Below, piece by piece: positions 5,078 to 62,243 of a stretch of DNA of 64,000 bases (positions within the stretch are counted from its first letter, which is position 1; each line of letters opens with the position of its first letter). The notes under the pieces were generated by a model, which made no database searches, was not told where the DNA came from, and was given only the letters and a program-made list of their open reading frames with translations. The DNA comes from Eledone cirrhosa (lineage: Eukaryota): NCBI GenBank assembly GCA_964016885.1, contig OZ024742.1, positions 183,706,001 to 183,770,000 on the forward strand, in the 5' to 3' direction. Both the position numbers and the translations under genes were made by a program.

Positions 5078-5262
5078 TGATATTAAATAAAAGGAAACTA
5101 TATTTATAAAACCATATTTATTCATTTATTCTATTATATATATTTCAAGGGTACCAAAACTTTGGTACGTTCTCATCGGATAAAATACAAAGTTTGTTTT
5201 ATAAATATTGACATAACCAAGGAAAAATACCTTAACGGTTCAAGTTTTTCCTGGATAGTCAT
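5078..5262 (-). mobile_element. Penelope-like terminal-repeat remnant with hammerhead-like motif (homolog of 20418-20867)
   Basis: Shares GGAAACTATATTTATAAAACCATATTTATT with the 20.5-kb element. Minus strand reads TATTTTAT-CCGATGA-stem II (GTACCAAA/TTTGGTAC)-GAAA-TATATATA-ATAGAATA. TA-flanked. Confidence 0.65.
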
Positions 5263-5404
5263 ATATATATATATGATGGCTGCAAACTCTGGTAAGAGTA
5301 TTGCAATCGCTTGTCAAATTACAGAAAATGGTGCACTTTTAGGCTATGGCCAGCCACACGAACCTGTAACAGATCTTGAACAAGCAGTGCCTCTGCTTTG
5401 AAGG

Positions 5405-5560
5405 TTTTTTAAGCGGGGAAAGGCCCTGCACTCGACCAATCCCACTCTCTGAGCATCGAAAACACTACCCGAAAAGGAGAACTGGTCAACATCATCGGAT
5501 GCTTCCGAAGCCGCAGGTTTTTTTTTCAGAGTTTCCCTCTCCTAGAAAGTTGTTGTGACA
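5405..5560. repeat. Dispersed repeat, homolog at ~47408-47580
   Basis: Both loci share CCAATCCCACTCTCTGAGC...CCCGAAAAG...TCAACATCATCGG...GCCGCAGGTTT...TCTCCTAGAA. Confidence 0.7.
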
Positions 5561-5672
5561 ATATATATATATATATATATATATATATATATATATATAT
5601 ATATATATATATATATATATATATATATATATATATATATATAATTATGTAATAAACAGCATAAGACAATTA

Positions 5673-5745
5673 TTTCATTTACCAAAGGTTTCACAAAGAC
5701 AGACAAGCCCAACAGAGACGTCTGAAATCGCTCATCAGAATGAAA
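5673..5745 (-). ncRNA. Type I minimal hammerhead ribozyme motif in a TA-flanked insert
   Basis: UUUCAUU-CUGAUGA-stem II (GCGA..CAGAC/GUCUG..UUGU)-GAAACC-UUU-GGUA-AAUGAAA. Stem I is a perfect 7 bp and the cleavage triplet is GUA. Confidence 0.75.
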
Positions 5746-5896
5746 ATTTAATATATATATATATATATATATATATATATATATATATATATATATATAT
5801 ATATATATATATGTATATATATATATTTATATATATATATATATATATATATATATATATATGAGGTTTTCTTCGTATATTTTTTATACGTATTAT

Positions 5897-6016
5897 TTGA
5901 GTTCAAATCCCGCCGGGGTTAACTTTGCCTTTCATCCTTACGAGGTCGATAAAATAAAGTACCAGTAATGCACAGGAATAATTGTCGGCCTTGTGCCAAA
6001 AGTAGAAATAATTATT
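5897..6016 (+). mobile_element. SINE family A, 5'-truncated
   Basis: B-box, Deu/Nin core and tail. Confidence 0.85.
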
Positions 6017-6559
6017 ACTTAGCTACCCAATTTTGATTAGAAAACTATGTACCTCACTGACTCTACAAACACGACTGACTACTCTTGCAGTATACTCGAA
6101 CAATATTTGTTGGCTGTCAAATCTTCTATCCGTAAAACAATGTTTGATGCAAATGTCAGTTTTGTAGACTGGCATCTTATCCCCGAGAGTCTCGTTTGGA
6201 TTGTCTCAAAACATAGGAATACACGATAGTTAGGTATATTAAGATGTGGTACTGTAAGTAAATATATACATATACACCAGGTCCCAACACAAAGAAACCA
6301 AGTCCCCATTGTCATTGCTTCCGTCTCCCCCGCTCTCCCCATCTAAAATAGAAGCCGCAATCTTTTTAACTACTCACCCAAATATTTCGTTGTTTGTTTT
6401 TGTTGTGTATTTTCGGTCAGGTCTTCTCAACCTTAGTTATATAAGGAGTAGTTGGCTGAACGCCTGAGTGCAACCAACACATAGGTTCAACATTCCTCTA
6501 CTCAAAGGTGACACGCTGATTATGACAAGTTCGACATAGTGACATACTGCACTGATTTC

Positions 6560-6900
6560 AGTGGCTGGCCAACGATGTGTGACGAAATACTTGAACAATT
6601 GGTTTACCCTGTATCTGTAAGCCTCTGTTCAGTAACTGCCATCCCATGGTGTCTTAGCATTTGAAGGTCGCCAATATCTGGCTTATTTTCTAGTTGGCTG
6701 ATGACAAGGTCGTCGACAGAAAAATCTATTATAACAATGCTTTCGAAGAGCTGAAACCAGCGATAGTGTAGTATACACCTTTTCGTGATTTGTATTCATA
6801 TCTCTGCTGGAACAGGGTATTAGGAATGACGGTGTTCAATTCATTCAAGAAAGACAAACGCTGTTTATCTTTTCAATCTCGCGTGTAACCAAACACTGGT
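6560..6900 (-). pseudogene. Possible decayed RTE-type LINE endonuclease fragment
   Basis: Broken minus-strand peptides VIPNTLFQQ and SK(H)CYIIDF resemble the APE motif NTLFQ...SKHWHLIDY. Heavily degraded. Confidence 0.35.
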
Positions 6901-7052
6901 AATAATAAGCGTTAAAACCACCCAAATCCTATACATTTTAGAACAAGTCACTGTATAATTGTGACCGCAAATCGCTGATAAGCCAGCCATATTAAATTAT
7001 ACCAACAGTAAGGCGAACACATAGTTTGATATTTAATACAGGTAAGGAGAGG

Positions 7053-58967: not shown

Positions 58968-59249
58968 AATTTTACAAATAAAAAGAAAAGAAATTATGTA
59001 GACACTATAGTCGAGAAAACTCGAGTAGCACGAATAGATTAAGGTGGTTTGGGCATGTCAGGATGAGTGAAAACAACCCTGTCAAGCACGCAAGGAAAAT
59101 GGAGATGAATGGCAGAAGTCGTTGGAACGATAACATAAAGGATCTATCAAGAAAGGAGGATGTTTTAGAAATGATAGCTAGAGAGAATGTATCAATTTAC
59201 AAATACCGTGAGCCAGCAATGTTGCTCGAAAAAGGTGATATTCATGATG
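58968..59249 (+). mobile_element. 5'-truncated RTE-type LINE 3' end with 17-bp TSD
   Basis: RLRWFGHV-RM motif; AAGTATTGATTTTAAGT at 58951-58967 and 59250-59266. Confidence 0.75.
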
Positions 59250-59797
59250 AAGTATTGATTTTAAGTCTGCTACCATGATTGATATTACAATATTTATGTT
59301 TCAAACAATTTACAGAATAAACAAAGTTGGTTGAAGTTTCATCATACATGGAAGTTAGTCACGGTATAATAATATCTAATAACATTACTGGTACTTTATT
59401 TTATCGACCCCGTAAGGATGAAAGGCAAAATAATAATATTTATAGCTTAACAACATTTGGCTGTTATTATACTATAATAAAATCTGTCTCTCTGTCTCTC
59501 TCTCTCTCTCTCTCTAATATATCCATATATATATATGTGTGTGTGTGTATGTGTGTGTGTGTGTATTTGAGAGTGGTTACCTTTGTTTATTCTTTTGTAC
59601 ACACACACACACACACACACACACACAAATACATTCACATACATACGCATATAAATAGACATACATACCTACATGCATATAGATATACATACGTATATAT
59701 ATATATTCATATATTATAGATACTCTACAATATCTACTTCCTCACTTCTTTAACAGTAGTCTCTATATTCGTTTGAGACTTTAACCAATTTGTATTA

Positions 59798-59940
59798 TGG
59801 CGGCGTAGCGACGAATTTGCAGAGTCGTTACGACATCGAATTAAAAATGCTTCGGTATTTGTATCGGTTAACTACGCTCTATGTTTAAATCCGCCGAAGT
59901 AAACTTTGCCTTTCATCCTTTTGAAGTCAATAAATAAAAT
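59798..59940 (+). mobile_element. Diverged family A SINE
   Basis: AACTTTGCCTTTCATCCTTTTGAAGTCAATAAA core. Confidence 0.6.
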
Positions 59941-60508
59941 AGCACTAGCAGGGAGAGTCTTGCTAAACAAATTTATTCTTTCACCACTGAGTCTCAATTC
60001 TATTAGAGCTGTTGTATATTTCGTGTAGAACGCCGATCACTCCTGGAAAACGGATGGTAAGAATGTGTGTGTGTGTGGTGTGTGGTGTGTGTGTGGTGTG
60101 CTGTGTGTGTGTGTGTGTAGCGGCTATGCCGAAAAATATTTCCTGTAAAAAGTCTTTATGAAAAAGGAATGTGCGCACACGCGTATGTGTACGTGTGTGT
60201 ATGGATGTATGAGTGAATGTGAGTGTATGCAATAGTGAGGGAAAGTGAGAGAGAGAGAGAGAGAGAGAGAGAGAGAGAGAAAGCAATGATGATGGTGATA
60301 GTTGTGGTAGCGACAACACCGAATTTTTTTATTCGTATATATATATAAGTATTGAAGTTTCCGTTGAAAATTGAAAAAGTCATAGGAGTGAAGAGTGCTC
60401 TATGTAAGTTACAGAGCTAAATTTAATGTATAATAATTATATTGTATTGTTTATTATACATTATATATATATACAACTTATAAATCAAACATTTCAAATG
60501 TCATATTG

Positions 60509-60723
60509 GTTCCTTATATAAGCACAAGGCCAGTGATTTTGGGGGAGGGGAAAGTCGATTAAATCGACCCAGTGCGTGACTGGTACTTTATTTTATCGAC
60601 CCCGTGAGGATGAAAGGCAAAGTTAACCTCGGCGGGATTTGAACTCAGATCATAAAGGGCCGTAACTCTTTGCTGCAAAGCATGGCGTCCGACTCTCTAC
60701 CGATACTGCCAATCTACCGCCCT
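60509..60723 (-). mobile_element. Full-length family A SINE (long-tail) with 18-bp TSD
   Basis: ATTTCAAATGTCATATTG at 60491-60508 and 60724-60741. Confidence 0.9.
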
Positions 60724-61877
60724 ATTTCAAATGTCATATTGATCTATATAATACTTGGCGTTTATTTCGAATGAAACCATGGAATTTCTTCGGAACCAGC
60801 TACTGTGTATGATAATTGTTATCCTTCATTCATCAGAACATAAAAAACATATTTGTTACAACTTGATTTACTTTTAAAAAAAAAGAAAACGAATAAAAAA
60901 TATATATTTAACTTTAGTTGGATTTTTAAATTAGCAGCGACAATCTCTTTCTATTCTCCAGAAGAAAATAAATAAATAGACAATAGACAATTAAATAAAC
61001 AAAAATAAATAAATAAATAAATAAATAAATAAATAAATAAATAAATAAATAAATAAATAAGCGTATCTGTTCATAAATAATTAACAAAGCGATGACATTT
61101 TCTCAATTTTCTTTTCGATGTTCATATATCTGCTAGAACAATTATATTATTGTAGCAAACAATAAACCATTATGAATTGTGCCGACTAAACAATGTCTGC
61201 AACAAATCTCTTAGAAGACAATTCTTTCTGTGCTTACAAATAAATCTGACGGACAATAAAATAACAATTATCATGATTTGTAAATTGTTATTCAGCGCAT
61301 TCATCGTGTTTGTTGATTGTAAATATATTTTATGATAAATATTCAGACACACACAAACACAAACACACATACACTAATATGTGTATGCACACACTAATCT
61401 TCTTCTATAAACAATTACATACACATTCGTTCAAATTACCTTTGACTGTCTATATGAGTGTGGATATATATATATATATATATATATATATATATATATA
61501 TATATATATATACATAGAGAGAGGGGGGAGAGAGATAATGTATGTAAGTGTGTGTGTGTGTATTCTCTATTGTCTAAATAATGAGTCGTGATACTTTGAC
61601 GTTTCACTTATGTACTCACAAGATCACACACAGACGCACGCACACACACACACACACACACACACACACACACACACACACACACACACACACACACACA
61701 CACACACACATATATATATATATATATATATATCTGTGTGTGTGTGTGTGTGTGTGTCTGTGTGTCTGTATATATATATATATCTGTGTGTGTGTGTGTG
61801 TGTGTGTGTGTGTGTGTGTGTGTGTGTGTGTGTGTGTGTGTGTGCGCGCGTGTGTCTGTGTGTCTGTATGTATATAT

Positions 61878-61972
61878 GAAAGAGTCAAGCCCCCGACTGC
61901 TGAGCTCTTGCCATTTGAAAAGTATCAAGTACTCTGGTGAGTCTAACCAGTTTCTAACTGAATCAATCCTGA
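61878..61972. mobile_element. Deleted relative of the 13047/62038 family
   Basis: CCCCGACTGCTGAGCTC..GCC joined directly to AAGTATCAAGTACTCTGGTG; TA-flanked. Confidence 0.55.
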
Positions 61973-62037
61973 TATATATATACATATATATATATATATA
62001 TATATATATATATATATATATATATATATATATATAT

Positions 62038-62243
62038 AACGAAGGAAATGTGGTAAGGAACCAGGTGGACCATAACGCACCAAAGTACTCAATACTTAGG
62101 GTAGTAGAGTGGGTAATAGGAACGAGTAGGACCCCGACGGCTGAGCTCAAGCCGTTTCGACGGCTAATTCTGTCCAGAATTGAGTCCAGAATTAGCTGTC
62201 GAAACGGCTTGAGCTCAGCCGTCGGGGTCCTACTCGTTCCTAT
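62038..62243 (-). mobile_element. TA-embedded Penelope-like remnant, inverted repeat centred on hammerhead stem II
   Basis: IR 62116-62243 with GAAACGG-CTTGAGCTCAG-CCGTC-GGGGTC in both arms. Tail homologous to 13151-13233. Confidence 0.75.

Follow-up and report, generated by a model that had tools for sequence, protein, structure and literature searches.

Fold-back inserts in (TA)n tracts of Eledone cirrhosa: putative end pieces of Penelope-like retrotransposons, probably formed anew at each insertion

A 64,000-nt stretch of the Eledone cirrhosa genome (contig OZ024742.1, positions 183,706,001 to 183,770,000; hereafter the window) holds a number of short inserts in TA-rich tracts. An earlier note regarded about 11 of them as a guild of non-autonomous or truncated, hammerhead-bearing mini-elements derived from Penelope-like elements (PLEs). 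The question raised by this locus is whether the inserts are units that copy themselves or pieces of something larger, and how their fold-back form arises. As listed in Table 1, a repeat insert adjoining (TA)n at one or both ends was found at 11/11 of the noted sites. The architecture ascribed to seven of them, a head-to-head inverted repeat with a tail on one side, was also borne out (13047, 14606, 20418, 40721, 49015, 53074 and 62038), and the tails, given as 40–90 bp, measure approximately 41–86 nt. The several families of the note resolve into nine (A, C, C', D, E, F, G, H and I), of which C, C' and D are mutually related, as are G and H. Families A and E occupy two sites each and the others a single site.

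Table 1. Inserts in the window, with positions counted from its first nucleotide.
Site	Family	Structure	Positions	Strand	Hammerhead and other features
5078	C'	solo arm	5078..5262	-	core at 5173-5179, U4C in this copy
5673	G	solo arm, TA run either side	5644..5750	-	canonical type I hammerhead 5738-5680
13047	A (Hydra-type)	fold-back 13049-13150 + 77-nt tail	13047..13232	+	3' half only
14606	F (Hydra-type)	fold-back 14605-14713 + 67-nt tail	14605..14790	+	cores 14656(-), 14663(+)
20418	C (Hydra-type)	86-nt tail 20418-20507, fold-back 20508-20862	20418..20862	-	canonical hammerheads 20606-20557(-), 20764-20813(+)
21530	E (Neptune-type)	solo arm + tail	21530..21742	-	complete U3-A8 hammerhead
34932	H (Hydra-type)	5'-truncated end	34791..35035	+	core 34941-34947, U4C
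40721	E	fold-back 40721-40995 + 62-nt tail	40721..41072	+	G12A, both arms
49015	I (Neptune/Nematis-type linker)	tail 49015-49063, arms 49064-49358 + 49665-49959	49015..49959	-	core boxes from 49301(-), stems I and III weak
53074	D (Hydra-type)	tail 53074-53156, fold-back 53157-53510	53074..53510	-	canonical hammerhead 53262-53208(-); plus arm with stem I broken (53405)
62038	A	tail 62038-62118, fold-back 62119-62240	62038..62242	-	3' half only; templated insert at junction

The association with TA is far above chance, since 94/120 sampled 3' ends run directly into TA, compared with 5% of non-run window positions that are 10 nt or less from a TA run. A tblastn search identified no PLE ORF within the window, in agreement with the note, and three short non-repeat frames considered as possible host gene sequence had no Pfam match.

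A strict type I hammerhead scan, with reversed and complemented sequence as controls (0 motifs), identified a canonical motif in 3/11 elements: 5673, both arms of 20418 and one arm of 53074. Non-canonical cores were judged by eye against genomic relatives. By this comparison, two elements carry complete variants (21530 with its U3-A8 core, and 14606 in its minus arm, where stem II has U.U at its base), four have damaged or weak cores and two are halves. The damaged cores are those of 5078 and 34932 (both U4C) and of 40721; in 49015, both core boxes lie approximately 270 nt inside the element. The sites 13047 and 62038 are without any first core box. U4 is present in 4/5 relatives of 5078, which is 71% identical to the 20418 arms, and U4C of 34932 is common to 21/39 sampled relatives. 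Thus, of the full or partial hammerheads claimed at all 11 sites, the three canonical motifs and two complete variants stand and the rest are damaged, weak or halved. The claim of ribozyme sequence in each fold-back arm holds fully for 20418 and not for the other fold-backs.

An Rfam scan of the window contained no hammerhead among the 150 of 478 matches listed. Genome-wide, RF00163 gave 18 matches over the cut-off out of 74 scored, but all 18 belong to one family absent from the 11 sites. Compensatory changes were found in the stems and core of motif-selected samples. The first two pairs of stem I are swapped between families (C-G, T-A, A-T, G-T) and are paired in 84–100% of these samples (about 50% in family I), and core position 3-8 is U-A in 16/16 A, 69/69 E and 13/13 sister copies although the selecting motif permitted either base. 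A candidate family A core, CTGA(T/A)GAGTCC, was dropped as its eight matches are junction products and the parent core is U3-A8.

Elsewhere in the genome, PLE ORFs adjoin 8/9 families, six being Hydra-type, one Neptune-type and one Neptune/Nematis-type, with one of these links resting on homology only. Full pLTR-ORF-pLTR units of family A were found at loci L207-L209, L211 and L213. Family E lies downstream of one GIY-YIG family at 3/3 loci and flanks a 938-aa RT and GIY-YIG frame at L226, in which RVT_1 scores 28 bits, just below the 29.6 cut-off, and GIY-YIG scores above its own. Further pLTR-ORF-pLTR or tandem units are present for E (L224, L226), H (L455, L458, L459) and I (a 4,147-bp tandem at L461-L462), and families C, D, F, I and H are each also tied to PLE ORFs. 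Family G had a PLE ORF in 0/30 loci of 3 kb; its sequence and the layout of its ends resemble those of H. The Hydra-type ORFs had no Pfam match in 2/2 pieces and were recognized instead by motif and tblastn. By eye, the A, F and C parents have the Hydra-clade RW-type motif, DKT and a CxCX5C linker with no CCHH, and the D and H parents match the A protein by tblastn at approximately 30–50% identity. The Neptune-clade linker, CX2-5CxxC before a C-terminal GIY-YIG, takes the form CX4CxxC in both E and I. Since Nematis shares this type of linker (PMC8557442), I may belong to either Neptune or Nematis. As judged from these motifs and tblastn matches, the inserts are end pieces (pLTRs) of autonomous Hydra- and Neptune-type PLEs. 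The PLE origin and (TA)n targeting proposed in the note are therefore supported, and its description of truncated PLEs was right; 34932 and 49015 resemble longer truncations of the ordinary kind.

In families A, C, E and F, the 5' ends pile up at a single site. Between -6 and +12 of a site chosen by eye after data inspection, and with the two arms of a fold-back counted separately, lie 19/30 (E), 15/30 (C), 20/30 (F) and 15/30 (A) ends, where the A and F samples miss shorter copies because their anchors are at the site or 8 nt from it. Within the window, the minus arm of 14606 extends to the inferred start site of its family and 21530 begins 2 nt past that of family E. In the parents, a TATA-like box starts 30 nt upstream of the site in the two families in which such boxes are clear, TATAAAA in E and TATAAATA in F. 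Families A (TATTTA, -31) and C (TATAAC, -29) have only weak boxes, in a genome that is AT-rich. A start-site guess for family D was dropped, as there was no TATA-like box and 13 arms were scattered. The arms of H are mostly long, with about 6/30 short.

The base preceding the site provides a second signal. Among matches with a base other than the parental C there, G accounts for 81 of the first 100 (of 1,426) in family F and for 48 of the first 100 (of 832) in family E, compared with an expectation of approximately 21%. In family F, 22 copies with G were read: nine cannot owe it to the partner arm, nine could, one is a long copy and three are ambiguous; at one locus (L311/L312) the extra base is present on both arms. 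A cap G is unsupported in family A, where ten arms starting exactly at the site are preceded by three G and seven C. Together, a fixed 5' end 30 nt after a TATA box and an extra G point to a capped sense template. Hammerhead cleavage was rejected as the cause of the 5' ends because in each of the four families the ribozyme would cut downstream of the pile-up.

At the other side of the arms, each family has two fixed 3' ends, at 61 and 138 (A), 106 and 192 (C), 103 and 165 (E) and 59 and 126 (F) from the anchor, and in each family 14–23/30 arms are accompanied by an inverted partner no more than 1.5 kb away. One asymmetric junction of the window has 210 exact matches. Among 30 copies, 13 carry the tail to the right and 16 to the left, one has no tail and none has it on both sides, such that 29/30 have exactly one tail. 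Internal layout is therefore not fixed among copies, and junctions are heterogeneous, with microhomology and templated inserts.

From these features, the short fold-backs probably form anew at each insertion, with both nicked (TA)n strands priming reverse transcription on a capped sense RNA and running off at its transcription start site. A promoter within the 3' UTR of one copy would produce a capped RNA from the site inside the pLTR, normally reading into the next tandem copy. The RT-endonuclease would then cut both strands of (TA)n, one strand starting at the nearer site and its counterpart at the farther one, and the gap between the two would be the tail. Where the tail beside the RNA 5' end is used, the cDNA would be only 75–270 nt, with the cap perhaps copied. 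The two cDNA 3' ends would be fused by microhomology-mediated repair, or one end joined to TA to leave a solo arm. The resulting stubs, which have no upstream TATA region, would be dead on arrival. The wider proposal, that Hydra- and Neptune-type PLEs use an external 3'-UTR TATA promoter and that tens of thousands of genomic palindromes are fused two-strand "strong-stop" cDNAs, is favored by a narrower balance. Work in vitro has shown a PLE protein cleaving the two strands and extending each, with a pair of start sites that delimit the tail (PMC11167929); however, the Drosophila virilis Penelope has an internal promoter without TATA (PMC2377424), which counts against the proposed mechanism.

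The best surviving alternative retains the PLE origin and has the palindrome made by self-priming of one strand, maybe on an antisense template, with the pile-up marking a stall or fold-back point of the RT. Antisense self-priming was put forward for head-to-head palindromes of Adineta Penelope, and solo pLTRs were ascribed to recombination or deletion (PMC3846280). Many junctions are near-perfect hairpins, G12A occurs in both 40721 arms, and arms in one locus are slightly closer than arms across loci (median 3 versus 5 mismatches per 36 nt). Self-priming, however, predicts neither a TATA box at -30 nor an extra G, and the arms end at two different fixed 3' sites with templated inserts lying between them. 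Solo arms joined directly to TA begin at the same site as fold-back arms. Stem II as the snap-back point in A was dropped because the parent stem II is longer and the arms begin in its loop. On this evidence self-priming is unlikely.

Considerably less probable is that the fold-backs are non-autonomous units, similar to retrozymes or SINEs, copied whole from a few palindromic masters. Near-identical 184-bp copies exist (93–96% identity among the top 40 of 4,940 candidates, picked by likeness to the query), and at a second family A junction the tail side followed subfamily in ten copies (5 left and none right in one group, 1 left against 4 right in the other). The lack of an ORF-linked copy of family G is also in keeping with whole-unit copying. 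The even split of tail side at the window's own junction weakens it and argues against a self-copying guild, as do the heterogeneous junctions, the absence of tandem non-coding monomers at the 11 sites, the tails that run on into ORFs in longer copies, and the stubs without a promoter region. The non-autonomous guild of the earlier note is thus unsupported, because the fold-back is apparently remade at each insertion and the short copies are without the upstream TATA region. Least probable of all is random 5' truncation with later deletion at unstable palindrome centers, which agrees with 34932, 49015 and the long fold-backs of every family (8–10/30 arms reach more than 100 nt upstream) but leaves unexplained the extra G and the packing of ends into a 19-nt zone flanked by few others (in E, none in the 37 nt further inside, three in the next 94 nt upstream and eight longer).

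The earlier note suggested that the inserts could seed self-cleavage sites and long dsRNA into host introns. Self-cleavage by the fold-backs is unlikely because a read-through RNA reaches the antisense arm first and the hammerhead core is predicted to be fully paired in the duplex. Long dsRNA is plausible if a locus is transcribed, and transcribed fold-backs would be predicted to give dsRNA rather than cleavage. By implication, much of what is counted as hammerheads in genomes of this type may be dead by-products. PLEs are the closest retroelement relatives of telomerase. The elements are known and their layout is published, so a guild of this sort is nothing unusual; what the analysis adds concerns mechanism. 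The fixed 5' end, TATA box and extra G give exact start positions to look for. If correct, the mechanism would fix the template as a capped sense RNA, explain why tandem copies are needed for PLEs to remain active and make start sites readable from genome sequence alone. In titles and abstract openings, with subscription journals and Repbase outside the search, no description of start-site run-off or of a cap G in PLEs was found.

The inserts most closely resemble the insertion units described for endonuclease-positive PLEs (Craig et al. 2021, PMC8557442; Arkhipova et al. 2013, PMC3846280), which likewise have head-to-head inverted pLTRs, a tail at one end, a (TA)n target and pLTR-ORF-pLTR parents. 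A putative TATA with Inr in one pLTR, and solo pLTRs, were noted in PMC3846280. The inserts differ in that the two halves frequently stop at one common fixed 5' site and have no ORF between them, and in tails of 41–86 nt versus 30–40. By eye, the parents of A, C, D, F and H share with the Hydra clade, including Hydra-1_Obim (PMC8557442), an RW-type N-terminal motif, DKT, the CxCX5C linker, endonuclease CxxC and CxH, the hammerhead and the (TA)n target. They are different families from Hydra-1_Obim, and family A has a U3-A8 core. Metazoan PLEs carry minimal type I hammerheads (Cervera and de la Pena 2014, PMC4209133) that likewise have a short palindromic stem III, an additional base following A9 and a U3-A8 variant, occur in opposite-strand pairs 100–700 bp apart and belong mostly to truncated PLEs. 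Unlike those, family A stubs begin inside stem II, and therefore the whole ribozyme is present only in longer A copies.

With respect to mechanism, the PAc protein (Poseidon) shows the same two-strand cutting and extension in vitro, two RT starts bounding a tail and an AT-rich target (Frangieh et al. 2024, PMC11167929); that account does not appear to extend to run-off at the 5' end of the RNA, to copying of the cap or to the joining of palindromes. In L1 twin priming (PMC4859970), a second priming leads to inversion and an extra untemplated G marks a capped RNA, as proposed here, but L1 inversions do not consist of mirror-image copies of the 3' end. A precedent for one copy's 3' UTR driving the next comes from HeT-A-like 3' promoters (discussed in PMC2377424). 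Finally, animal non-LTR retrozymes (bioRxiv 10.64898/2026.07.22.740005) have type I hammerheads and PLE kinship in common with the inserts. Retrozymes are described as tandem non-coding monomers, whereas 0/11 inserts lie within a tandem array and their longer copies carry ORFs, as would be expected of the ends of coding elements.

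The 11 ribozyme sites placed by the earlier note in TA tracts are all repeat inserts in contact with (TA)n, which makes up ~12% of the window. They sort into nine families: A (13047 and 62038), C (20418), C' (5078), D (53074), E (21530 and 40721), F (14606), G (5673), H (34932) and I (49015). The seven inserts described there as having inverted arms and a one-sided tail were all recovered by masked self-comparison, with a single-sided tail on each. Counts and loci were drawn from the ~3.0-Gb assembly. Leaving D and C' aside, exact short-motif matches, which count arms and not elements, number 26,181 for A, 10,895 for E, 10,680 for F, 10,175 for I, 3,201 for H, 1,521 for C and 65 for G, with 0 for each reversed control. 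In position-ordered samples, TA directly follows the 3' end in 94 of 120 arms versus 5% of window positions lying near a TA run.

Fold-backs, Penelope-like ends and other repeats in the window
Feature	Position	Strand	Remarks
Fold-back	13049-13150		masked self-comparison
Fold-back	14605-14713		masked self-comparison
Fold-back	20508-20862		masked self-comparison
Fold-back	40721-40995		masked self-comparison
Fold-back	53157-53510		masked self-comparison
Fold-back	62119-62240		masked self-comparison
Arm pair	49064-49358 and 49665-49959		masked self-comparison
Further fold-back	14309-14530		arms 73% alike; one-sided tail into (TA)n; relatives at other loci; no hammerhead core
Additional fold-back	7053-7269		no match within 1.2 Mb of retrieved loci
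Additional fold-back	13930-14001		TA-rich flanks
Additional fold-back	26021-26260		built from common short interspersed repeat
TA-adjoining PLE-type end	35049-35327		
TA-adjoining PLE-type end	40611-40704		
TA-adjoining PLE-type end	60434-60464		
TA-adjoining PLE-type end	61878-61970		
LINE fragment	17464-19536	(-)	RVT_1 match, E 2e-26; weak zf-RVT match
190-bp SINE-like repeat, ~20 copies	62, 1713, 16784, 26164, 28044, 42818, 51957, 63800 and others		
Short tandem of the SINE-like repeat	28044-28729		
42-bp satellite	21996-24125		50.6 copies, 96% matches

The four PLE-type ends, which the earlier note did not list, together comprise two family I ends, one H scrap and one A-like remnant. The further fold-back that lacks a hammerhead core may be the end of a PLE without a hammerhead.

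An origin of the inserts from Penelope-like elements (PLEs) is very nearly certain. As stated previously, the window itself holds no PLE ORF; the links come from elsewhere in the genome. Family E lies ~1 kb downstream of a GIY-YIG ORF with a CX4CxxC linker in 3/3 loci of one GIY-YIG family, and is also found flanking a frame of 938 aa that matches both RT and GIY-YIG. The family A tail continues into an ORF, complete units of ~3.1 kb with an end repeat (pLTR) on either side exist, and the ORF motifs agree with the Hydra clade as described in section 11, the supplement and the alignment of PMC8557442. The family F tail likewise continues into a Hydra-type ORF, and families C and D, which have inverted partners, sit downstream of ORFs of this type. 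Full units were found for family H, and family I is part of a 4,147-bp tandem element encoding a C-terminal GIY-YIG and the CX4CxxC linker. Family C' is linked through homology to C, and no ORF was found for family G at 30 loci. The family I protein (L389-L390) contains an asparagine-rich stretch, as do rotifer Penelopes in PMC3846280.

Many copies are stubs that begin at a shared 5' site inside the pLTR, which was picked by eye and scored over -6..+12. For family E, 19/30 arms end in this zone, 0 in the 37 nt further inside and 3 in the 94 nt just before it, with 8 longer. The corresponding family C numbers are 15, 3, 2 and 10. Families F (20/30) and A (15/30) were scored with anchors that are blind to shorter copies. 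Families D, H and I gave no clear pile-up. By hand count, TATAAAA starts 30 nt upstream of the site in family E parents (the longer, ORF-linked copies) and TATAAATA starts 30 nt upstream in those of family F; weaker TATA-like boxes lie at -31 in A and -29 in C. Upstream of the family E box, in the 3' UTR of L105, L101 and L108, are recurring words that we take to resemble CCAAT, E2F and E-box motifs and that suggest a proliferation- or germline-timed promoter.

The base preceding the site was tallied by hand for matches differing from the parental C. G is expected at ~21%; the first 100 of 1,426 family F matches gave G 81, T 10 and A 9, and the first 100 of 832 family E matches gave G 48, T 33 and A 19. 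In 30 family F loci, 22 G cases comprise 9 not derivable from the partner arm, 9 derivable, 3 unclear and 1 long copy; the partner-independent cases include 4 solo arms beside simple repeats, as well as a locus whose two arms both carry the extra base. Family A gave 3 G and 7 C (n=10). A family G fold-back (L399/L400) also has an extra G ahead of a possible start site. Untemplated 5' G has been read as a copied-cap mark in L1 and SVA (PMC4859970). From these sequence features, we infer that the pile-up site is a Pol II start; the stubs would be cDNAs started at the tail closest to the RNA 5' end.

Arms stop at two fixed 3' ends per family, separated by 62-86 nt in A, C, E and F. In samples of 30 arms per family, 14-23 lie within 1.5 kb of an inverted partner. 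The asymmetric 13047 junction has 210 exact genome matches; among the first 30 by position, 13 are right-tailed, 16 are left-tailed, 1 has no tail and none has two. Since a master-copied unit would keep one side, the fold-back appears to be rebuilt each time from one long and one short start, and the inserts are not a self-replicating guild. A second junction (6 left, 4 right, 3 neither, n=13) is less clean, its side following subfamily. Arm junctions show overlaps of 1-7 nt and short insertions templated by neighboring sequence, resembling microhomology-mediated end joining. This overall picture agrees with in vitro work on a PLE in which both strands were cut and extended from two start sites that delimit the tail (PMC11167929). 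The full two-strand, run-off model is considered fairly probable.

A strict scan of the 11 sites identified the canonical type I motif only in 5673, both arms of 20418 and one arm of 53074, with 0 motifs in control sequences. Variants were judged in motif-selected relatives, where a U3-A8 core, either base being permitted, occurs in 69/69 family E and 16/16 family A copies; this variant is known from PLEs (PMC4209133). In such samples U4C occurs in 21/39 family H copies and, among five, in 5078 only. Family F has U.U at the foot of stem II, both 40721 arms have G12A, and stems I and III are poor in family I. Family A stubs begin within the stem II loop and hence lack the first core box, which is confined to longer copies. 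Stem I base pairs differ between families yet remain paired; the parent elements have therefore conserved the motif. A sister Neptune-type family downstream of the ORF in L088 and L098 has U3-A8 in 13/13 copies, a variant that escapes CUGANGA descriptors. The L061-L078 family is the only one passing Rfam Hammerhead_1 and is arranged like the 11 sites as to fold-back, tail and TA; its long copies contain at least 1.5 kb of upstream sequence with no ORF, making it a candidate for a true non-autonomous PLE passenger.

The earlier suggestion that the inserts seed active self-cleavage sites is unlikely. The arms point outward, so that the antisense arm comes first in any read-through RNA, and folding predicts a core box pairing probability of 1.0 in the C, D and F fold-backs. 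Neither of two solo arms tested adopts a hammerhead fold at minimum energy. PLE minimal hammerheads cleave weakly in vitro and require dimers, and opposite-strand pairs 100-700 bp apart are known in metazoan PLEs (PMC4209133).

The pattern is real, abundant and of a known kind, and its value rests on the promoter and cap evidence. A literature search, mostly of listings, brought up no paper in which cap G or start-site run-off is treated for PLEs. Among the annotated repeats of O. vulgaris are Penelope-like families, in the available portion of PMC13282606 without detail of this sort. PLEs have been described with an inverted copy, a tail on one side and a preference for (TA)n (PMC8557442, PMC3846280); the latter source favors antisense self-priming as the origin of the palindromes and gives a putative TATA and Inr in one pLTR. 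In D. virilis, Penelope starts inside its pLTR; the promoter is internal and TATA-less, and the tandem logic is HeT-A-like (PMC2377424).
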